From: Desulfomonilia bacterium
Lineage (GTDB): Bacteria; Desulfobacterota; Desulfomonilia; UBA1062
Direction of reading: 5' to 3'
Assembly: GCA_050014195.1 (NCBI GenBank)
Contig: JBEKDT010000003.1
Span: forward strand, 96,001-160,000
DNA: 64,000 nucleotides
The position numbers and the translations under genes were made by a program. The notes beneath the pieces were generated by a model. It was given only the letters and a program-made list of their open reading frames with translations, had not been told where the DNA came from and searched no databases. Below, one piece after another: positions 38,609 through 50,260 of this stretch (position 1 is its first letter; each line of letters begins with the position of its first letter).

Positions 38609-38884
38609 CGGCTATCTCCTTGATACTCTTCTCATGATGTATGTTTTCATTACCGGATGGTGCGTGGGCCCTGACAGGAGGCTATCTGTCCTGATAATAC
38701 TTCAGATGTGCTTTTCATGAGCGCACCTCTCGCCTCGTTTCCATCTCCAAGTGTAATACAAAACCATAACAGGGGAAAAAATTCAATCCCAAGCTATGTT
38801 ACCATTCAATATGCCTGCCATGACACCCCATTTTATAAAGAGGAAGAAGGACTTCCCAACTATGGCGCCTAAGATGAGCCTCTG

Positions 38885-39292
38885 TTATTCCCCCTTTGGG
38901 TAATCATGTGATTTATAGGGCTTGATGTCCAGAATGGGTGTGCCGTCCAGCAGGTCTACATTATCCACAAAGAGCGTATTGCCCTCAACCCTTATCAGCC
39001 GCAGGATCGACATGCCAAGGGCATTAGGCCGGTTCGGCGAGCACAGGCTGAATACCCCCTTAAGCTCTCCCTCTCCCCTGCGTTTCTGCATAAGCGTGAA
39101 GCCTTCTGCGCGATGGAAGTGGAAGAGGACCACTATGTGATCATACTCTTCCAACCCTGCAAGGCCTTCCGCATATGGCTCTAACATCTCGATGGTACCT
39201 CTGATTTCTGAGGCGGTATAGAACTTGGGCGCCATATCAGAATTAACAAGCTCGCAGTGCATGAAGCCGATCGGCCTGTAGCAGATATCCAT
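38885..39292 (-). CDS. tsaA: tRNA m6t6A37 methyltransferase TrmO/TsaA-like
   Basis: PIG, GVFSLCSPNRPN, DLLDGTPILDIKPY; start may be 39310. Confidence 0.85.
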   Translation of the reverse strand: MDICYRPIGFMHCELVNSDMAPKFYTASEIRGTIEMLEPYAEGLAGLEEYDHIVVLFHFHRAEGFTLMQKRRGEGELKGVFSLCSPNRPNALGMSILRLIRVEGNTLFVDNVDLLDGTPILDIKPYKSHDYPKGE

Positions 39293-40643: not shown

Positions 40644-40845
40644 AGAATCTCCTCCTCTTGTAAAGATGGGTTCGTGAAAGAACAAATTTATACATTTCAT
40701 ACTATACGTAAGTCTCCCTTGAGAAAACACGAAACTGTGCTTCTCGTAACAAGATTCCTGTGAACTCCCTTCTAAGGAGGTGCACCGGTTGATGATCATT
40801 TTCCCTGCTTAAGTACCGGCTTTTTGTTTCCGGATCCTCTCATCC

Positions 40846-40874
40846 TTGACCAACCCAATTTTCCACCCTATAAC
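40846..40874 (+). promoter_or_regulatory. sigma70 promoter predicting a leaderless transcript
   Basis: TTGACC-17-TATAAC, then 6 nt to ATG 40881. Confidence 0.55.
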
Positions 40875-40880
40875 AGCCTC

Positions 40881-41774
40881 ATGCATGTCCCCGAACATCT
40901 CGTCATCCGGCCTCCCAGCGAGGCCAAGAGCCTTCTGATAAGGACCGTGAGAGGTTGTAACTGGAACCGGTGTCTGTTCTGCGGCATCTATGACTATTTC
41001 GACACACCCTATTCTGAGCGAGGCCTCGCTGAGGTTATCAAGGACATCGATTCGCTCTCAGACATGTACGGCGACATATTCAAGACCGCATTTTTAGGTG
41101 ATGCGAACCCCCTTGCCCTGCCCACGGATTTCCTGGTTGCGGTGCTGACGCATCTCCGGAAAAAGTTCCCTTCCCTGACGCGGGTCACCTCATATGCAAG
41201 GGCATCGAGCCTGGCCAAGAAGTCAGTCGAAGAGCTCAGGGCCATCCATGATGCCGGCCTCGACCGGGCGCACGTGGGCATGGAGAGCGGGTCGGATGCA
41301 GTGCTCAAGCTCCAGAAAAAGGGTACGAGCCAGGTCCAGCTCATCGATGCCGGTAAAAAGACCATGTCCTCGGGCATGGAGCTGTCCTATTACTTCCTTT
41401 TGGGATTGGGCGGGCAAGCACTCTGGGAGGATCACATAAAGGGTACCGCCTTGGTCATCAATGAGGTGAAGCCCCATTTCGTCCGTGTGCGTCGGCTGTG
41501 GATCCACCCCATGTCGCGACTGATGGAAAAGATCAATGCCGGAGAGTTCATGGAGCAGACCCCGGAAGGCACGGTCATAGAGCTGAGGGATCTCGTCAAG
41601 GCCCTCGACCCCTCGTCTACCGTGCTCGCCTGCGATCATGCAAACAACTACATCCAGGTCTTCGGCAGGCTTGATGAGGACAAGCAAGAGATGCTGCGCC
41701 TCATCAACACGTTTCTCGAACTACCTGTACAACAGCGGCAGAACCATTATCGTTCGATACCGTCGGTTATTTAA
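40881..41774 (+). CDS. Radical SAM protein (RPPSEA-type, paralog of 37730-38608)
   Basis: RPPSEA, CNWNRCLFC, DHANNY. Confidence 0.9.
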   Translation: MHVPEHLVIRPPSEAKSLLIRTVRGCNWNRCLFCGIYDYFDTPYSERGLAEVIKDIDSLSDMYGDIFKTAFLGDANPLALPTDFLVAVLTHLRKKFPSLTRVTSYARASSLAKKSVEELRAIHDAGLDRAHVGMESGSDAVLKLQKKGTSQVQLIDAGKKTMSSGMELSYYFLLGLGGQALWEDHIKGTALVINEVKPHFVRVRRLWIHPMSRLMEKINAGEFMEQTPEGTVIELRDLVKALDPSSTVLACDHANNYIQVFGRLDEDKQEMLRLINTFLELPVQQRQNHYRSIPSVI

Positions 41775-41874
41775 TATGAGCTATTAAGCCTGTACTCCAC
41801 ACGTCTCTTTCCAGTTTTTCCTTGACTTCTCGGTGCGTTTTCTTTAAAGCCCCTAGTCTATGGCAACTGTGATC

Positions 41875-41913
41875 ATGGCAAAAAAAACGTTCGGGTTCTT
41901 CTTTTTTGATTAG
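41875..41913 (+). CDS. Phe-rich attenuator leader peptide MAKKTFGFFFFD* (in-frame upstream ATG 41860 gives MATVI-MAKKTFGFFFFD*)
   Basis: ATG GCA AAA AAA ACG TTC GGG TTC TTC TTT TTT GAT TAG: 5 Phe in 6 consecutive codons; stop abuts the antiterminator arm. Confidence 0.8.
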   Translation: MAKKTFGFFFFD

Positions 41914-41968
41914 GTCTGCCTGCGTTTAAGCTTTTTTAGATCTAGTCAAAAAAAGCCGTAGGTAGACC
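41913..41968 (+). promoter_or_regulatory. Antiterminator hairpin of the Phe attenuator
   Basis: GGTCTGCCTGCG (41913-41924) pairs with CGTAGGTAGACC (41957-41968); GCTTTTTT (41930-41937) pairs with AAAAAAGC (41949-41956). Confidence 0.75.
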
Positions 41969-41994
41969 GGTTTTGTCTACCTGCGGCTTTTTTT
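41955..41994 (+). terminator. Attenuator terminator
   Basis: GCCGTAGGTAGAC / GTCTACCTGCGGC 13-bp stem, 7-nt loop, U7 tail, about 70 nt upstream of the operon start. Confidence 0.88.
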
Positions 41995-42063
41995 ATTTTA
42001 GGGATATGAAGATCCCATCACAGGTGTGGTGGACAGTAAAATAAAGATAGGGGAGGAATTGAA

Positions 42064-43272
42064 ATGAAGAGGAGAATGAGAAATGCATTGATCATGGGAG
42101 GTATGCTGCTTGTTACCTGTATGCTTACAGCACCGGTAATCTATGCCAAGGACATCAAGGTGGGCGCTGCCATCAACCTCACCGGCCCGGCATCCACCTG
42201 GGGCCAGTACCATGCCAAGGGACAGCAGGACTACTTCAAGTATGTCAACGAGGTCAAGGGTGGGGTCAAGGGCAACAAGATCCAGATGATCACGGTTGAT
42301 ACCGCATATAAGGCGCCCGAGGCCGTAGCTGCGGTAAGGAAGTTCGCCATGCAGGACAAAGTGGACATGATCGCCACCTGGAGCGCAGGAGAAGGCATCC
42401 AGGCAAAGCCTCTGCTCCAGCAGTTCAAGATCCCAGCCATCAACTACTCCACGGCCTGGGAGATCCTCCAGCCGCCTGTTGACTATATGTACCTGCCTTT
42501 CGGCAACTACAAGCTCGACTGCCAGGTGGTCATGGAATATATTGCTGCCGTGCATAAAGGCCCCGGTGCACCGAAGGTCGGCCTGCTTACTTACAACAAC
42601 CCCTACGGCCGCTCCATTCACGAGCCGAGCAGGGAATACGCCAAGGGTAAGAACATAGACTTGGTCACCATCGAGGAGTTCCCGCCACAGACGGTGGACC
42701 TCACCACCGAGCTCTTGCGGCTCAAGCAGAAAGGCGCTCAGTATGTGTTCATACAGATGCTGCCTGCTGCCATTATCAGCACGCTCAAGAGCGCAGACCG
42801 CATCGGTTACAACCCCGTCTTCATCGGCACCTGGACTTCAACCGACCCCGATTTTTTTAAAAACGGCAAAGGCCTCATCCGCGATCGCGTGAAGATGCAG
42901 TTCTGCGGCGGCCTGCCATCGGACAAGGCCCCGGGCATGAAGATCATGGAGGAGCTCTGGAAGCGATATAAGAGCGTCGAGTCCTTTGATACCGCCTACT
43001 GGGAGGGCGTGGTCGTGGGCATGATCATGGAGAAGGCCTTCATCAGGGCCCAGGAGAAGTTCGGACAAATCACACCCGAGAACATCAACAAGGCCCTCGA
43101 GACATTCAATAACGAGGACTTCGGCGGTCTGGTCCCCAATATTACCTATACCAAGGAAGACCACGGTGCATCCTTCACGGGCCGTATCGTCCAGATACAT
43201 GAGAACGGCACATTCACCCCGTTGACCAACTTCTTCACACCCGGCAAGGACAAGATCCAGATACTGAAGTAG
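42064..43272 (+). CDS. Liv/HAAT-family ABC substrate-binding protein
   Basis: Signal peptide, IKVGA..NLTGP, YVNEVKGGV.G.KI, D..Y; periplasmic binding protein type 1. Confidence 0.9.
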   Translation: MKRRMRNALIMGGMLLVTCMLTAPVIYAKDIKVGAAINLTGPASTWGQYHAKGQQDYFKYVNEVKGGVKGNKIQMITVDTAYKAPEAVAAVRKFAMQDKVDMIATWSAGEGIQAKPLLQQFKIPAINYSTAWEILQPPVDYMYLPFGNYKLDCQVVMEYIAAVHKGPGAPKVGLLTYNNPYGRSIHEPSREYAKGKNIDLVTIEEFPPQTVDLTTELLRLKQKGAQYVFIQMLPAAIISTLKSADRIGYNPVFIGTWTSTDPDFFKNGKGLIRDRVKMQFCGGLPSDKAPGMKIMEELWKRYKSVESFDTAYWEGVVVGMIMEKAFIRAQEKFGQITPENINKALETFNNEDFGGLVPNITYTKEDHGASFTGRIVQIHENGTFTPLTNFFTPGKDKIQILK

Positions 43273-43285
43273 CAAAGGATAACGA

Positions 43286-44137
43286 GTGAGGGCATTTCGA
43301 GGGCATCCACGAATATTCTCCACCGAACTGATGGCGCTCAGGCAGGCCGAGCTGGAAGTCAAAGGCCTGTCTCTCGCCTTCGGCGGCATCCAGGCCGTCA
43401 AGAATGTGGACCTGTCCGTCCACACCGGCGAACTCGTGGCCGTCATCGGGCCCAACGGCGCAGGTAAGACCAGCCTTCTGAACTGCATCACCGGATACTA
43501 CAAGGCAACCTCAGGTGACATCATCTTCAATGGCCGAAGCATCGTGCGCATGCATACACACAAGCTCACCTCGCTGGGCATCGGCAGGACCTTCCAGAAC
43601 ATCGAGCTCTTCCCGGGCATGACCGTTCTCCAGAACATGCTGCTGGCCCGCCACACCCGCTCCTCCTATAACTTCGGCCTGGCGTGCCTGTATTCCCCTT
43701 CAGTCAAAAAAGAAGAGATCGCTCACCATGAGATATTGGAAGAGATCATCGATTTCCTTGAGATGCAGTCCATACGCAAGGAGCTCGTAGGATCACTGCC
43801 CTATGGCCTTCGCAAGCGGGTGGAGCTCGGCAGGGCCCTTGCCTCGGAGCCCAGCCTGCTCGTGCTGGACGAACCCTTTGCCGGCATGACCCTGGAAGAA
43901 AAGGAAGACATGGTACGCTTCCTGCTGGAACTGCACGACGGCTGGGGCCAGACCATGATCCTGGTGGAGCACGACATGTCCATCGTCATGAGCATATCCG
44001 AGCGGGTCATTGTGCTCAACTTCGGGGAGAAGCTTGCCGAGGGCCTGCCGGAGGAAATCCAGGACCACCCCGAGGTCATCAAGGCCTACCTCGGAGACAC
44101 CACGGACCTTGGCTTGAGCATACAGGAAAGGGCATAG
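43286..44137 (+). CDS. ABC ATP-binding protein (LivG-like); start may be ATG 43331
   Basis: GPNGAGKT, RTFQN, LPYG, LDEP, VEHDM, AYLG. Confidence 0.92.
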   Translation: MRAFRGHPRIFSTELMALRQAELEVKGLSLAFGGIQAVKNVDLSVHTGELVAVIGPNGAGKTSLLNCITGYYKATSGDIIFNGRSIVRMHTHKLTSLGIGRTFQNIELFPGMTVLQNMLLARHTRSSYNFGLACLYSPSVKKEEIAHHEILEEIIDFLEMQSIRKELVGSLPYGLRKRVELGRALASEPSLLVLDEPFAGMTLEEKEDMVRFLLELHDGWGQTMILVEHDMSIVMSISERVIVLNFGEKLAEGLPEEIQDHPEVIKAYLGDTTDLGLSIQERA

Positions 44138-44146
44138 GGGTAGAGC

Positions 44147-46096
44147 ATGGGCGAAGGAAACTCTTCCAGGAAGGTCAGCACCGAGCATCTCGAAGAATTG
44201 GCCGAGGGCACCCTGCCCCAGGCCCTTGCAAAGCAGGCCGAGCTTTTTGGTAACAAGCATCTCGCCATCCGAGAGAAGGCCTACGGCATCTGGCAGACCT
44301 ACACGTGGGAAGACTACCTGTCGTATGTGAAATACACCGGGCTTGGGCTCAAGGCCTTGGGGCTTGGCCGTCACGACCACGTGGGCATCATCATGAACAA
44401 CCACCCCGAGTGGCTGTTCACCCAGCTTGGCTCCCAGGCCTTCGGCGCTGTTACATTAAACCTATTCACCTCGGCCATTGCAAACGAATTGGCCTCTGCC
44501 CTGAACCGCATCCAGGCGAGCTTCGTCATCGTGCAGGACCAAGAACAGGTGGACAAGCTCCTGGAGCAGATGGGCAAACTCACCCACCTTAAGTTCATCA
44601 TCTACGTGGACCCCACGGGTATGAGGGGTTATGCGAGCAACAAGATCCTCATGAGCTATAAAGACCTGCTGGACCTCGGCAGGAAGCATGAGGCCAGGCA
44701 CCCGGGTCTTTTTGCCGAGGAACTTTCCAAGGGCAAGGTGGGGGATGTTGCCCATATGATCCTGACATCGGGCACCACGGGCATATCCAAGCTCGCCATG
44801 CTCAGCCACAAGAACTATGCGGACATGGGAACGAAGTGGACCTTGTCTTCTCCGGTCTATATCGGGGCCAACTGGCTTTCCATGACCCCTCCAGCCTGGA
44901 TCGTGGACCAGATGTGGGGTTTCGGCGTGGCGCTCTTAGGCGGCATGACCATGAACTTCCCCGAGACGCCCGAGACCGTGACCGCCGACTTCCGCGAGAT
45001 CGGGCCGAGTCTGCTCATTTCTTCCTCACGCTTCTGGGAGGACCTAGCCTCAAAGATCAGGGTCAAGATAGATGATGCAGGGCCCATCAACCGGGCCTTC
45101 TTTGCGTTTGCCGAGCGTATCGGCTTTGCCTCTATCGACCGGAAATCATCCAAAAAGCCCATCCCTTTTGGCCTACGGCTCCTGCATGGCCTGGCCAAGA
45201 CTTTTGTGTTCAATCACCTGATGGACCGTGTGGGCTGCTCACAGTTCATCAGCGCATACACCGGGGGCCATCCCATCAGTCCAGATGTAATCCGTTTTTT
45301 CAGGGCCTGCGGATTGAACCTCAAGCAGTGCTACGGCCTTACAGAGACCTGCGGAATCTTCCAGGTGCAGCCCGATGACGAGGTGAAGCCCGAGACCGTA
45401 GGCAAGCCGCTGCCCGGCACCCAAGTGAAACTGTCCAAGGACCAGGAGGTCATGGTTCTCTCCGGCTCGATCTTTGAAGGATACTACAATGACTATGAAT
45501 CCACCCAAAAGGCCTTTGAAGACGGGTGGTTTTTGACCGGCGATGCAGGCTACTTCGACGATGACGGACACCTCATCATCATCGGGAGAAAGCAGGACAT
45601 CATCCGCGACAAGGAAGGCAACGCATTCTCCCCTGACTTCATTGAGACCAGGCTTAAATTCTCTTTATATATAAAGGAAGCGGTCATCTTCGGTGAAGGC
45701 CGCCCCTTCATTACGGCGCTCATCAACATCGATATGGGTAACGTGGGCAACTGGGCCGAGGACCGCATGATCCCCTATACGACGTATACCGATCTCTCTC
45801 AAAGGCCCGAAGTGGAACAACTGATCCTTGAAGAGGTGAAAAAGGTCAACACCGAGCTGCCGGGGCCCATGAAGATCAAGCGGTTCATCCTGCTCTACAA
45901 GCTGCTGGATGCCGACGATGAGGAGCTCACCCGAACGGGTAAGGTGAGGAGGCGTTTCGTCTATGGCCTTTATCTACCCATGATCGAGGCCATGTACTCG
46001 GAACTCAAGGAGCTCCCGGTAAAGGGCAAGGTCCGCTACCGTGACGGCCAGGTGGGCATGATCGAAACTATAGCCCACGTGATTACCCTTAGCTGA
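44147..46096 (+). CDS. AMP-binding acyl-CoA synthetase (long-chain ligase-like) embedded in the ABC operon
   Basis: TSGTTG..K, YGLTE, TGDAG, ELTRTGKVRR. Confidence 0.9.
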   Translation: MGEGNSSRKVSTEHLEELAEGTLPQALAKQAELFGNKHLAIREKAYGIWQTYTWEDYLSYVKYTGLGLKALGLGRHDHVGIIMNNHPEWLFTQLGSQAFGAVTLNLFTSAIANELASALNRIQASFVIVQDQEQVDKLLEQMGKLTHLKFIIYVDPTGMRGYASNKILMSYKDLLDLGRKHEARHPGLFAEELSKGKVGDVAHMILTSGTTGISKLAMLSHKNYADMGTKWTLSSPVYIGANWLSMTPPAWIVDQMWGFGVALLGGMTMNFPETPETVTADFREIGPSLLISSSRFWEDLASKIRVKIDDAGPINRAFFAFAERIGFASIDRKSSKKPIPFGLRLLHGLAKTFVFNHLMDRVGCSQFISAYTGGHPISPDVIRFFRACGLNLKQCYGLTETCGIFQVQPDDEVKPETVGKPLPGTQVKLSKDQEVMVLSGSIFEGYYNDYESTQKAFEDGWFLTGDAGYFDDDGHLIIIGRKQDIIRDKEGNAFSPDFIETRLKFSLYIKEAVIFGEGRPFITALINIDMGNVGNWAEDRMIPYTTYTDLSQRPEVEQLILEEVKKVNTELPGPMKIKRFILLYKLLDADDEELTRTGKVRRRFVYGLYLPMIEAMYSELKELPVKGKVRYRDGQVGMIETIAHVITLS

Positions 46097-46113: not shown

Positions 46114-46992
46114 ATGGAATTTTTCTTTCAGCTTCTCATCAACGGCTTAAGCATCGGTCTTCTCTACGGACTGTCCGCCCTGGGCTTTGTCATGATCTTC
46201 AAGTCGTCATCCGTGCTGAATTTTGCCCATGGCCAACTGCTTGCCATAGGGGCCTTCATGTTCCTGGTCCTGGTATCCTGGGCCAAGGTCCCGGTGATCC
46301 TTGCCTTCCTCCTCACGCTGGCCCTCAGCTTTGTGCTCGGTTTTGTAGTGGAGCGTATCTTCCTCAGGCCTTTGATCGGGGAGTCCCTCATCTTTGTCAT
46401 CATGCTCACCGTAGGCCTGGCATCCATGTTCAAGGGCCTGCTCCTGTTCTTCTTCGGCGGCAACCTCCAGACATACCCCGACTTTCTGCCGCAGGGCCTT
46501 GCCATTACCCTAGGCAACATCTATATCCCGCCGGTATATGTGGCATCCTCGCTCCTGGGGGGTGTCTTCCTGTTACTCTTCGGGCTCTTCTTCAAGTACT
46601 CTTCCCAGGGCATCTACATGCGCTCGGTGGCCGACAATCAGACGGCAGCCCTGTCGCTGGGGGTCCACGTGAAGAAGGTCTTTGCCCTTTCCTGGGCCAT
46701 TGCCGCAATGGTGGCAGGCATGAGCGGCATCGTGCTGGGGATCATCAACGGCATTAATGTTCATGAAATAAGCTCGATCGGTCTAAAGGTCTTCCCGGTG
46801 GTGATCCTGGGCGGGCTGGACAGCATCGGCGGGGCCATCATCGGCGGCATCATCATCGGACTGCTGGAGACCTTCACCTCCGGGTACATCTCTCCATCAC
46901 TACGCGATGTGATCCCGTATATCGTCCTGGTGTTCATCCTGCTCGTGAAGCCGTACGGCCTCTTCGGGCTTGTTGAGATCGAGAGGGTGTAG
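46114..46992 (+). CDS. ABC permease (LivH-like)
   Basis: NGLSIG..Y.L.ALGF, NFAHG, ILGGLDS, KPYGLFG. Confidence 0.92.
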   Translation: MEFFFQLLINGLSIGLLYGLSALGFVMIFKSSSVLNFAHGQLLAIGAFMFLVLVSWAKVPVILAFLLTLALSFVLGFVVERIFLRPLIGESLIFVIMLTVGLASMFKGLLLFFFGGNLQTYPDFLPQGLAITLGNIYIPPVYVASSLLGGVFLLLFGLFFKYSSQGIYMRSVADNQTAALSLGVHVKKVFALSWAIAAMVAGMSGIVLGIINGINVHEISSIGLKVFPVVILGGLDSIGGAIIGGIIIGLLETFTSGYISPSLRDVIPYIVLVFILLVKPYGLFGLVEIERV

Positions 46993-47005
46993 GAGAGAAT
47001 CGACG

Positions 47006-48076
47006 ATGAAACGGCTGCAATTTCACCCCTGCGGGAACTACAAGGAACACTACGGGGCAGAACTCACCATCTTTGAGACCGACTTCGGAAGGATGTGGGC
47101 CTGCATCTCTCTGGTATTCCTCTTTGGCGTGGCTCCCTTCATCTGCAGCCCATACCTCCTCTATGTCCTGAACATCACCGGCATCACGGCCATCGCCGCC
47201 CTGGGCCTGAACATCCTTGTCGGGTTTACCGGCCAGATATCGCTGGGCCACGGGGCATTCTTCGGGGTCGGTGCATATGCCGGCGCCATCCTGGCCACCA
47301 CCGTGGGGCTGCCCTTCTGGGTGGCCGTGCCGGCTGCCGGGCTGGTCACGGCATTTGTGGGCATGATCTTCGGCATCCCATCAGGCAGGCTCAAGGGTCT
47401 ATACCTGACCATCGCAACCCTGGCGGGCCAGTTCATCATCGAATATATCCTGGTGCACTGGGACAGCCTCACCAAAGGGACCATGGGAATCATGCTGCCT
47501 ACAGCCTCGTTATTCGGCCTTGCCATTAACTCGGACATGCGATTTTTCTATGTGATTTCCATATGCCTGGTTTGTACCACCCTGGTTGCATCAAACCTCA
47601 TGCGCACACGGTACGGCAGGGCCTTCATCGCCATCAGGGACAATGACCGGGCGGCCGAGGGCATGGGTATACCCATCTTTTTCTACAAGCTCCTCTCCTT
47701 TGCCGTCAGCTCATTCTATGCAGGTTTTGCAGGCGCCCTCTGGGCATTCTACATGAAGAGTATCTCCACCGAACCCTTCACGCTGGGGTTGTCTGTCGAA
47801 TACCTTGCCATGGTCATCATCGGGGGGCTGGGCAGCATTCCCGGCTCCATCTTCGGTGCGGTGTTCATCACAGGCCTCAATGAGATCCTGCGCTTTGCCA
47901 CGGATGCCATGATGAACATCGGGGCTTTCCACGGCTTCGGATTAAACATGGCATCATTGCGCGAATTCGCCTTCGGGCTGGCCATTGTTCTGTTCATCCT
48001 CTTCGAGCCCAAGGGACTTGCCGAACTGTGGAGGATAGTGCGTTCCTCCTTCAGATTATGGCCGTTCTCATACTGA
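47006..48076 (+). CDS. ABC permease (LivM-like)
   Basis: GLNILVGFTGQISLGH, LKGLYLTIATL, IIGGLGS, EPKGL. Confidence 0.92.
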   Translation: MKRLQFHPCGNYKEHYGAELTIFETDFGRMWACISLVFLFGVAPFICSPYLLYVLNITGITAIAALGLNILVGFTGQISLGHGAFFGVGAYAGAILATTVGLPFWVAVPAAGLVTAFVGMIFGIPSGRLKGLYLTIATLAGQFIIEYILVHWDSLTKGTMGIMLPTASLFGLAINSDMRFFYVISICLVCTTLVASNLMRTRYGRAFIAIRDNDRAAEGMGIPIFFYKLLSFAVSSFYAGFAGALWAFYMKSISTEPFTLGLSVEYLAMVIIGGLGSIPGSIFGAVFITGLNEILRFATDAMMNIGAFHGFGLNMASLREFAFGLAIVLFILFEPKGLAELWRIVRSSFRLWPFSY

Positions 48077-48085
48077 GGTGACGAC

Positions 48086-48898
48086 ATGGAAGCCCTGAAC
48101 GCCGATACCCTGCTCCAGCTCAACAACATCAGCGTAGTCTATTCGGATGTCATCCAGGTCCTCAAGGGCGTATCCCTGCAGGTGCCGAGGGGCCGCATCA
48201 TCTCTCTCCTGGGCAGCAACGGCGCAGGCAAGACCACGACGCTCAAGGCCATCTCAGGTCTGCTCAAACCGGAAAACGGCAAGGTCACGGACGGCAATAT
48301 TATCTATGATGGCAAACATGTCCAGAATCTCTCACCCGAAGAGATCACCAGGCTCGGCATCATCCAGGTCCTCGAGGGCAGGCAGCCCTTCAAATACCTC
48401 ACTATCGAAGAAAACCTGAGGGTCGGTACAGCCACGCGCTGGACCAAGCCTTATAAAAAGGACCTAGAAATGGTCTACAATTATTTCCCGACCCTGGTGA
48501 AGCGCAGGAAGACTTTGGCCGGATACTGCAGCGGCGGCGAGCTTCAAATGGTTGTCATGGGCAGGGCCCTCATGGCCCACCCCAAGCTTCTCCTGCTGGA
48601 TGAGCCGTCACTCGGTCTTGCACCGCTGATTGTGAAAGAGATCTTCCGGATCATCAAGCGGATCAACGAGGAGCAGGGGACCACCATTATCCTGGTAGAG
48701 CAGAATGCCAATATGGCCCTGCAGATCGCCCATTTCGGATACGTCCTGGAAAACGGCCGTGTCGTGATGGAGGGCGAGGCGGGGCAGCTGAAGGAAAACC
48801 CGGATGTAAAGGAGTTCTACCTGGGTGTGAGCGCAGGCGGTGCAGCACGGTCGTATCGGGACGTAAAGTCATACAAGCGAAGGAAGAGGTGGTTGTAA
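48086..48898 (+). CDS. ABC ATP-binding protein (LivF-like)
   Basis: GSNGAGKTT, SGGE.QM, LDEPSLGLAP, VEQNA. Confidence 0.92.
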   Translation: MEALNADTLLQLNNISVVYSDVIQVLKGVSLQVPRGRIISLLGSNGAGKTTTLKAISGLLKPENGKVTDGNIIYDGKHVQNLSPEEITRLGIIQVLEGRQPFKYLTIEENLRVGTATRWTKPYKKDLEMVYNYFPTLVKRRKTLAGYCSGGELQMVVMGRALMAHPKLLLLDEPSLGLAPLIVKEIFRIIKRINEEQGTTIILVEQNANMALQIAHFGYVLENGRVVMEGEAGQLKENPDVKEFYLGVSAGGAARSYRDVKSYKRRKRWL

Positions 48899-49003: not shown

Positions 49004-50260
49004 GTGAGCAAGTATCTTGATGATCTCGAAACCATGTCCCGATCAGAGCGTCAGTCATATCAGGACAAGCGGCTGGCCGAAATGGTACGTACCGGCTTTG
49101 AGAGGTCTCCCAAGCTCAGGTCCGTCTTACAGGATCGCGGTTTGAAACCTGTAGATATCCAGACTGTACAGGACCTAGAGAAGCTCCCCATTATTTCGCG
49201 GGAACAGATTGTAGGTATCGAGGCTCAGAATCCTCCCTATGGCGGTCTTGCTGATCCTGATGCGCACATCGAGCGTATCTTCATCTCCCCTGGGCCGGTC
49301 TATGAACCTCATCTTGGCTCTGATGACCCGCTGTGGGCCAGGGCTTACAAGGCAGCCGGATTTACTAAAGGCGACACTGTCCTGAACGCCTTCTCTTACC
49401 ATATGGTGGCAGCCGGGCTCACATTTCATGGAGGACTCAACATGGTGGGCGCAACAGTGGTCCCCTCAGGCACCTCAACCTCCCAGCAGCAGGTGCAGCT
49501 CATCAAAGATTTGAATATCACCGGTTATACCGGAACGCCGAGCTTCCTCATGTCCATCATCGACAAAGCGCGAGAAATGGGGTTTGATTTCTCAAAAGAT
49601 TTCAAAGTCAAGCGTGCCAGCTTTGCTGCCGAACCGCTCCAGCCGTCCCTAAGGCAGCGGTTCGAGACCGAGTATGGCATTGACACCTTCCAGATGTACG
49701 GCGCCACAGAGGTCGGTGATGTGGCGTATGAGTGCTCTGAGAAAAAGGGCTGGCACCTGTGCGAGGAAGTGATTGTTGAGATCGTGGACCCTGCAACGGG
49801 TATGCATGTAAATCCTGGTGAACTGGGCGAAGTTGTTGTAACACGTCTGAATCACATATTTTTCTTGTTGCGCTTCGGCACCGGCGACCTTTCAAGCATC
49901 ATCGAAGAGCCCTGCCCCTGCGGCAGGACATCATTACGGCTCGCAGGTATTGCAGGAAGGGTGGGCGATGCCGTTAAGGTGCGGGGCATGTTCGTCGCCC
50001 CAAGCCAGGTGAAAAGGGTCTGTGAGGGCTTCGAAGGGATTGGGGTCCAACTCGTCATCACCCGCTCCGGCCACCGGGACATCCTGACCGCAAGGCTCGA
50101 CACCAGGGGTGTTGACAGAGACCGCCCTGCACTCCAGTTGCAGTTCGAAAAGGTCTTTCAGGAAATCTGCACTGTCAAGGTCGATGCTGTTGAGTTCCTT
50201 GAACCAAGAAGCCTTAAGGATGACGCCAAACTGTTGGTTGATGAGAGGACGTGGAACTAA
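49004..50260 (+). CDS. paaK: Phenylacetate--CoA ligase family protein
   Basis: DLEKLP, YTGTPS, YGATEVG, EIVDP, RFGTGD, CPCGR, GR..D.VKVRG; AAGGAGG SD before GTG. Confidence 0.8.
   Translation: MSKYLDDLETMSRSERQSYQDKRLAEMVRTGFERSPKLRSVLQDRGLKPVDIQTVQDLEKLPIISREQIVGIEAQNPPYGGLADPDAHIERIFISPGPVYEPHLGSDDPLWARAYKAAGFTKGDTVLNAFSYHMVAAGLTFHGGLNMVGATVVPSGTSTSQQQVQLIKDLNITGYTGTPSFLMSIIDKAREMGFDFSKDFKVKRASFAAEPLQPSLRQRFETEYGIDTFQMYGATEVGDVAYECSEKKGWHLCEEVIVEIVDPATGMHVNPGELGEVVVTRLNHIFFLLRFGTGDLSSIIEEPCPCGRTSLRLAGIAGRVGDAVKVRGMFVAPSQVKRVCEGFEGIGVQLVITRSGHRDILTARLDTRGVDRDRPALQLQFEKVFQEICTVKVDAVEFLEPRSLKDDAKLLVDERTWN

Follow-up and report, generated by a model that had tools for sequence, protein, structure and literature searches.

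A probable phenylalanine-codon attenuator ahead of a transporter and CoA-ligase operon in an uncultured Desulfomonilia bacterium

The window analysed here is a 64,000-nucleotide stretch of DNA from a Desulfomonilia bacterium (GTDB lineage Bacteria; Desulfobacterota; Desulfomonilia; UBA1062; assembly GCA_050014195.1, contig JBEKDT010000003.1, positions 96,001 to 160,000 of the forward strand). Between its positions 41822 and 41994 lies a leader region, immediately ahead of seven genes that encode an ATP-binding cassette (ABC) transporter and two coenzyme A (CoA) ligases. This leader combines a short open reading frame (ORF) ending in a run of phenylalanine (Phe) codons with alternative RNA helices and an intrinsic terminator. 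From sequence, comparative and folding evidence, we consider it very probable that the leader is a ribosome-mediated attenuator, which would sense charged tRNA-Phe and thereby control the seven-gene operon.

The leader region and its elements

The elements of the leader, several of them overlapping, are as follows.

41822-41827, plus strand: -35-like box TTGACT, read from the sequence; TTGAC stands there in all class A leaders, the class to which the window belongs
41843-41850, plus strand: -10-like region TTTAAAGC, part of a conserved block, TTTCTTTAAAG, with some doubt as to the precise hexamer
41860-41913, plus strand: leader ORF of 17 codons plus TAG, reading MATVIMAKKTFGFFFFD and ending FGFFFFD-TAG
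41890 and 41896-41907, plus strand: putative regulatory Phe codons, TTC at the former position and TTC TTC TTT TTT at the latter
41902-41918, plus strand: 5' arm of helix P1 (anti-antiterminator), carrying Phe codons 4 and 5, Asp, TAG and GGTCTG
41937-41953, plus strand: 3' arm of P1
41913-41924, plus strand: antiterminator 5' arm GGTCTGCCTGCG, whose first base is the G of the stop codon
41930-41937, plus strand: antiterminator extension GCTTTTTT, paired with 41949-41956 in the fold of 41913-41968
41949-41956, plus strand: AAAAAAGC, partner of 41930-41937
41957-41968, plus strand: common segment, being the antiterminator 3' arm and most of the terminator 5' arm
41955-41987, plus strand: terminator hairpin, with a 13-base-pair (bp) stem (41955-41967 with 41975-41987, one G-U) and a loop of 7 nucleotides (nt)
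41988-41994, plus strand: U7 tract of the terminator (T7 in the DNA)

Phenylalanine accounts for 5 of the last 7 leader codons. The 12 bp formed by 41913-41924 with 41957-41968 comprise 10 Watson-Crick and 2 G-U pairs, and since the antiterminator and the terminator both need 41957-41968, the two helices are mutually exclusive. Judging from the -10-like block, transcription would start a few bases before ATG 41860; the block TTTCTTTAAAG is conserved, and one relative has TATAAA at the -10-like position. The stop codon is TAG in 18/18 class A loci collected by homology, where its G opens the antiterminator arm (41911-41913 in the window), so that RNA structure seems to dictate which stop codon is used.

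An earlier note, made by a model from the letters alone, had placed TTGACT at 41822, a 12-bp pairing between 41913-41924 and the 5' arm of the terminator, and a 13-bp stem with U7 that excludes that pairing. All of these are present at the positions given above, and the pairing is lengthened by the extension. The same note read the leader as a 12-codon ORF at 41875-41913, which from ATG 41875 to the TAG at 41911-41913 spells MAKKTFGFFFFD; the Phe-rich frame is there, but the conserved start is ATG 41860, which makes the ORF 17 codons long. An Rfam scan of 41000-42600 at E up to 10 returned 18 matches, all at chance level (the best scoring 24.2 bits against a gathering score of 74), none of them to a Phe-leader family, a T-box or a riboswitch.

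Conservation of the leader with its operon

We define the leader unit as the TTGAC box, the ATG, a variable N-terminal part, the FFFF run, TAG, the GGTCT arm and the terminator. A search with the substrate-binding protein encoded by the first gene of the operon, across 40 relatives, recovered orthologs that are 69-100% identical in family f1 and about 61% identical in two genomes of family f2. The whole unit lies upstream of the orthologous gene at 18/18 f1 loci that include the 5' end of the gene (L001-L016, L020, L021), and neither of the two f2 loci carries it at this position. The closest relatives are metagenome-assembled genomes (MAGs) of Desulfomonilia, 'delta proteobacterium', Syntrophaceae and Thermodesulfobacteriota, and 13 further named MAG loci have the same leader.

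A pattern in IUPAC code covering the Phe run, stop codon and arm was then run over 185,579 species genomes. Among the 35 stretches it matched, 33 have the full architecture, one is cut by a contig end and one (L113) was rejected as a chance match, coming from an unrelated taxon and having no binding-protein gene downstream. The pattern contributed 34 new loci, and every one of the 31 with enough downstream sequence has the binding-protein ortholog 125-240 nt after the stop codon. Gene order is kept in 5/5 loci with at least 6 kilobases downstream; a sixth, L135, has the same order as far as its sequence reaches, with weaker, partial hits.

The gene upstream of the leader, a radical-SAM gene in the window, differs at L003 and L013-L016, where the unit is nonetheless retained, and at L004-L006 and L009 a separate long hairpin comes after the radical-SAM stop codon and before the TTGAC box. 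Hence the unit belongs to the transporter operon. Five loci (L004, L005, L006, L009 and L020) have a long, almost perfect inverted repeat with arms of about 20 bp before the TTGAC box, which the corresponding part of the window (about 41775-41820) lacks. The orthologous loci L017 and L018 have no leader, nor, by eye, do L046, L055 and L058-L060; a script found no Phe-run ORF at L057, where only 55 nt of upstream sequence are available, or at L061-L065. Contigs from six peat or wetland metagenome runs, belonging to six studies and not flagged as possible sources of the assembly, contain 41700-42500 nearly complete (shares of 0.85-0.96).

Coding signature of the leader

The frame from ATG to TAG is open in 22/22 distinct leader sequences, against 6/22 and 3/22 for the other two frames. 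The ORF spans 16-18 codons once additional upstream ATGs in two loci are disregarded, and its ATG falls 37-39 nt after the start of TTGAC in 19/22. While the N-terminal part diverges, all 30 distinct sequences in a larger set have a run of at least four Phe codons, and within the four-codon run of the 30-leader alignment the only variable columns are 3, 9 and 12, all of them third codon positions. Conservation of the peptide itself is restricted to the Phe run and the last residue. Conserved Phe runs and compensatory stem changes in orthologous leaders were what the earlier note had suggested looking for, and both were found, the latter in the terminator and at one pair of helix P1.

Alternative helices and the effect of a translating ribosome

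The minimum-energy fold of 41860-42000 has a free energy of -46.7 kcal/mol, a stability that 0 of 200 dinucleotide-shuffled sequences attained (z = -5.3). Besides the terminator, this fold contains P1 (41902-41918 with 41937-41953), a helix in which the two final Phe codons, the Asp and stop codons and the initial 6 bases of the antiterminator arm are all sequestered. The two-structure scheme of the earlier note was therefore incomplete: both of its helices exist, but it overlooked P1, the partner of the terminator in the ground state. Folded in isolation, P1, the antiterminator (41913-41968) and the terminator reach -19.1, -27.5 and -24.6 kcal/mol, respectively.

The effect of a ribosome was approximated by masking bases up to 12 nt beyond the first base of the A-site codon, a footprint value that is general knowledge. 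With the RNA cut at 41970, the antiterminator forms with 12/12 pairs when the A site is at Phe codon 2 or 3, 10/12 at codon 4, 7/12 at codon 5 and 0/12 at the stop codon. This is the behaviour that the earlier note had predicted, in which a ribosome at the stop codon blocks the antiterminator arm and stalling at the Phe codons frees it.

Conservation of the helices was measured in two sets: A1, with 19 sequences collected purely by protein homology, and A2, with 30 distinct sequences, 11 of which came from a pattern search in which part of the antiterminator arm was prescribed. In A1, the terminator is paired at 98.0% (2 pairs changed on both sides), the antiterminator at 97.4% and P1 at 92.3%. 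The corresponding values in A2 are 96.7% for the terminator (3 pairs with compensatory double changes), 95.6% for the antiterminator (6 pairs changed on one side) and 95.0% for the 11-pair core of P1 (one compensatory pair, 7 changed on one side). Slid controls were paired at 27-44%, and RNAalifold, unaided, predicts P1 and the terminator.

We also followed triples made of the arm, the common segment and the terminator 3' arm. One column takes the states G-U-G, G-C-G, G-U-A and A-U-A, and another U-A-U or U-G-C; at the most variable columns, combinations that would break a helix, such as A27 with C92 or C92 with A119, are absent. The elements, their conservation, the coding signature and these pairing potentials are direct observations.

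Other aromatic leaders in the same genome

The genome was scanned for further leaders under a strict rule (at least 4 identical residues in 6) and a relaxed one. The strict scan gave 19 rows, mostly C-terminal ends of longer genes, with only the window leader and an iorA leader being credible; the relaxed scan gave 16 hits, including trp and DAHP-synthase leaders that the strict scan had missed. The three additional leaders are listed below.

Contig C4, 11819-11887, minus strand: Tyr/Phe-rich iorA leader of 22 codons (...PYYYGFYF...CP and stop), locus L074
Contig C10, 132505-132585, plus strand: F/Y/W-rich DAHP-synthase leader (contains IFFGYYFWF) followed by a terminator, locus L217
Contig C23, about 38835-38918, minus strand: Trp leader with WWW and a terminator, before trpE-trpG-trpD...trpB, locus L218

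The stop codons of all three fall within the respective antiterminator arms, and masking a ribosome on them gave the same pattern of folds as for the window leader. The iorA leader precedes iorA-iorB-paaK-ACT-livKHMGF-paaK and a 149-amino-acid (aa) ORF without NCBIfam hit, an operon that extends down to about 1453 on C4; it is kept in 18/21 f1 loci (one read by eye) and in 0/8 f2 loci. Downstream, IorA scores 745 bits (cut-off 651) and the DAHP synthase on C10 scores 502 bits (cut-off 335). A TATAGA box precedes the start codon of the Trp leader by 6 nt, which suggests a leaderless start here as well. The genome also encodes pheA and chorismate synthase, and no leader was seen by eye in about 500 nt before pheA.

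Longer leaders in Smithellaceae and Syntrophaceae

In MAGs of Smithella, Smithellaceae and Syntrophaceae (L044-L056, L066, L071, L073, L141-L216), the orthologous operon is preceded by a longer Phe/Tyr-rich leader, which has a Shine-Dalgarno sequence and an ORF that continues across the conserved GGTCTGCCTG arm and ends at TGA. These leaders were sought with a second pattern describing only the arm and stop context, with the Phe/Tyr codons left free. It matched 77 stretches, of which 69 precede the orthologous binding-protein gene; the other eight (L148, L159, L175, L195, L196, L201, L203 and L207) were discarded as chance hits, coming from unrelated taxa and not being followed by a binding-protein gene.

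An ORF of 27-36 codons is present in 62/69, with 4-8 Phe, 0-4 Tyr and at least 6 of the two together (median 8); overall, these ORFs encode 60 distinct peptides and consist of 20.5% Phe. An upstream CAGGCAG pairs with CUGCCUG, giving the classical 1:2, 2:3, 3:4 order with the Phe/Tyr codons in the loop. Since the loop codons are unpaired, the excess of Phe and Tyr among them speaks for selection acting on codons. In a sub-variant (L150, L164, L197), the Phe-rich ORF ends inside the arm. Two tandem terminators, each a hairpin with a T-run, were seen between leader and binding-protein gene at L044, L045, L150, L164 and L197.

The operon and neighbouring genes

The genes around the leader are as follows.

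40824-41774: radical-SAM gene, upstream of the leader
42064-43272, plus strand: Peripla_BP_6 substrate-binding protein (Liv/HAAT type), with Shine-Dalgarno GGGGAGGA at 42050-42057
43286-44137, plus strand: LivG-like ABC ATPase
44147-46096, plus strand: AMP-binding acyl-CoA ligase, FadD-like, 649 aa
46114-46992 and 46970-48076, plus strand: LivH-like and LivM-like permeases
48086-48898, plus strand: LivF-like ABC ATPase
49004-50260, plus strand: PaaK-family adenylate-forming ligase, 418 aa

The gene set comprises the full composition of a Liv/HAAT-type ABC importer, i.e. Peripla_BP_6, two BPD_transp_2 permeases, and LivG-like and LivF-like ATPases, with the transporter proteins scoring below the cut-off of every named NCBIfam equivalog. 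In a sequence search of the PDB, the nearest of the hits to the binding protein was 3lkb (E 7e-36), whose annotation says only that it probably binds branched-chain amino acids; 13 further hits were weaker. By its sequence, the 418-aa ligase is a member of the PaaK family; it falls below the PaaK equivalog cut-offs (234 bits against 700, 197 against 646) and is 33% identical to the near-cut-off PaaK of the same genome. A 207-aa ORF antisense to the binding-protein gene (41998-42621, minus strand) is most likely spurious.

Proposed mechanism and alternative explanations

We propose that a ribosome translates the 17-codon leader from ATG 41860. When Phe-tRNA is plentiful, it would reach the TAG at 41911-41913 and cover the antiterminator arm at 41913-41924, and after its release P1 would sequester the start of that arm. 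The segment 41957-41968 would then be free to pair with 41975-41987, the terminator would form, and RNA polymerase would stop at U7. When Phe-tRNA is scarce, the ribosome would instead stall at the Phe codons at 41896-41904; P1 would be broken, and the freed arm (41913-41924) would pair with 41957-41968 before the terminator 3' arm has been transcribed, letting the polymerase read into the operon. The transcription start, leaderless initiation, stalling and a kinetic competition between helices are the steps we infer here.

Three other explanations were weighed. The terminator/antiterminator switch could be set without a ribosome, for instance by a small molecule bound to a riboswitch, by an RNA-binding protein or by uncharged tRNA, with the ORF and its Phe codons a by-product of a U-run required for pairing with the A-run of P1; indeed, UUUUUU at 41902-41907 pairs with AAAAAA in P1, and no Shine-Dalgarno sequence precedes the leader ATG. 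Yet the leader frame stays open in every distinct sequence (22/22 against 6 and 3 of 22) despite N-terminal indels, the Phe run varies at third codon positions only, and the Phe codons at 41890 and 41896-41901 lie outside P1. Loop codons that are unpaired likewise stay Phe/Tyr-rich in the 62 Smithellaceae-type ORFs, the Rfam scan gave no riboswitch or T-box at E up to 10, and the codons of the three other leaders in the genome match their operons, all of which makes a switch of this kind very improbable. Even less probable, in our view, is that the hairpin is simply an intrinsic, bidirectional-looking terminator of the radical-SAM gene, the operon promoter being unregulated and the ORF and complementarity arising by chance. 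The stem is flanked by A7 and T7, it lies 180 nt beyond the end of the radical-SAM gene, and the terminator scan lists it on the minus strand. Against this, the unit accompanies the binding-protein gene even at loci with different upstream sequence (L003, L013-L016), the 31/31 pattern copies with enough downstream sequence precede that gene, a TTGAC box separates the upstream gene from the hairpin, and L004-L006 and L009 have their separate long hairpin before this box. Finally, the 17-aa hydrophobic peptide or the terminated leader RNA of about 135 nt might act in trans, besides or instead of in cis. The leader RNA would be abundant, and PMC6614838 reports a trans-acting small RNA derived from the Sinorhizobium trpL attenuator; the peptide, however, varies freely outside the Phe run and last residue, and a trans role would be compatible with cis control. 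We give it little credence.

Ribosome-mediated attenuation at the Phe codons, the explanation we favour, also has to contend with a number of contrary observations. On the side of expression, a consensus promoter/terminator scan did not call the 41822 promoter and listed the hairpin on the minus strand only, the -10 box is weak, and no RNA run is listed among those that contain 41700-42500. The 14-nt stretches before the leader ATG in 22 distinct sequences contain no GGAGG-type motif at the usual distance; this absence, together with the short distance between ATG 41860 and the predicted start, points to a leader mRNA that is probably leaderless or nearly so. As for the folds, a stall at the last two Phe codons masks part of the antiterminator arm, and in full-length RNA no mask displaced the terminator from the minimum-energy state, which leaves only a kinetic switch, of the kind that known attenuators use. 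Moreover, RNA cut at 41970 and free of ribosomes has the antiterminator rather than P1 as its minimum-energy fold, so default termination would depend on P1 forming first and resisting displacement. P1 is complete 4 nt before the common segment 41957-41968 begins, and its early formation and persistence are a predicted step.

Of the three helices, the antiterminator alone has no pair, out of 12, with a double compensatory change in A2, where the arm was moreover partly fixed by the pattern for 11 of the sequences, and its twelfth pair is kept in only 15/30. The two measures of its conservation were matched by 41 and 27 of 500 shuffles, so that its kept pairing is indistinguishable from plain sequence conservation with wobble-tolerant drift.

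A possible role in phenylalanine supply

Attenuation at Phe codons raises expression when charged tRNA-Phe is scarce, and the operon should thus serve the supply of Phe. The transporter may import Phe itself, as the annotation of 3lkb allows; being that of an amino-acid binder, this annotation does not decide between Phe and an aryl acid as the ligand of the binding protein. Alternatively, and only tentatively, an aryl acid such as phenylacetate could be imported, ligated to its CoA ester and reductively carboxylated to phenylpyruvate by the separately attenuated IOR. The presence of two CoA ligases in the operon and of a Tyr/Phe leader on iorAB-paaK favours this aryl-acid route, which occurs in rumen bacteria and methanogens.

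More broadly, these uncultured Desulfomonilia- and Syntrophales-like bacteria could possess a set of four operons under aromatic attenuation, in which IOR/PaaK/ABC clusters act anabolically to turn peat aryl acids into Phe and Tyr, and the window operon, with its leaderless leader, is a Phe-specific uptake and activation module; we offer this as a conjecture that falls somewhat short of being likely. If true, codon content would be tuned to each target, with WWW for trp, F/Y/W for the DAHP synthase, Y/F for iorAB-paaK-ACT-liv and F alone for the operon studied here. Since attenuation switches genes on at amino-acid scarcity, the IOR, PaaK and ABC-transporter clusters would be anabolic rather than catabolic, and the leader offers a testable argument on the direction of the aryl-acid/IOR pathway in peat and in digester syntrophs. 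The regulatory codon would also name the physiological signal, providing a functional label (Phe supply) for a poorly annotated 'branched-chain amino acid' ABC system and PaaK-like ligase. Its compact design, with the stop codon in the antiterminator arm and a probably leaderless start, could make the leader usable as a Phe-responsive part.

Comparison with known attenuation systems

Among known Phe leaders, pheM precedes pheST. In the pheL-pheA attenuator of gammaproteobacteria, a ribosome that has reached the stop codon promotes termination, whereas one stalled at the Phe codons promotes the antiterminator; the run cited for E. coli has 7 Phe codons, and outside Proteobacteria only Bacteroides and Desulfobacterium autotrophicum may use pheL for pheA (PMC3082878). 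The window leader resembles pheL-pheA in its short ORF with a Phe run, its alternative helices and its intrinsic terminator at the end. Unlike pheL, however, it has 5 Phe codons rather than the 7 given for E. coli, is probably leaderless, has no match to any Rfam leader family, and targets a transporter and two CoA ligases instead of pheA or pheST, no leader having been seen at the genome's own pheA. The arrangement differs as well, in that the partner of the anti-antiterminator lies downstream, inside the antiterminator loop, rather than in the 1-2-3-4 order. With trpL-type attenuators it has the three-helix logic in common, and the Smithellaceae variant reproduces their 1:2, 2:3, 3:4 order exactly, whereas in the window class it is the first segment, not the second, that is common to the decoy helix and the antiterminator, and the last base of the window ORF is also the first of the antiterminator arm.

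Leaders of Corynebacterium glutamicum, some of which are leaderless, provide another point of reference. RNA-seq identified leader peptides before aroF, trpE, leuA and ilvB in this species (PMC3890552). The leader on the aromatic gene aroF has its likeness in the F/Y/W leader before DAHP synthase in the present genome, but the C. glutamicum leaders come from a different phylum, show no homology and target biosynthesis only. For control of uptake, the closest parallel lies in the T-boxes: in Firmicutes, these control amino-acid transporters and sense uncharged tRNA directly, without a leader peptide. In both systems, a shortage of one charged tRNA turns on uptake by antitermination; here, by contrast, there is a leader peptide and no T-box match.

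To our knowledge, nearly all known cases of leader-peptide attenuation come from cultured Proteobacteria and Actinobacteria, where it governs operons for biosynthesis and for tRNA synthetases. A search of full-text literature, with supplements such as the pheL source list of PMC3082878 falling outside it, retrieved no paper that describes leader peptides ahead of ABC/paaK or iorAB operons, in agreement with the earlier note, whose author knew of no Phe leader on a Liv-type/paaK operon in this lineage. Here, a probable attenuator precedes a transporter/CoA-ligase operon in about 100 species-level genomes of uncultured anaerobes, with sister leaders on iorAB-paaK, DAHP synthase and trp. The leader is most likely a new example of classical attenuation in uncultured peat bacteria, of note for its target operon, its wide spread and the set of four operons to which it belongs.

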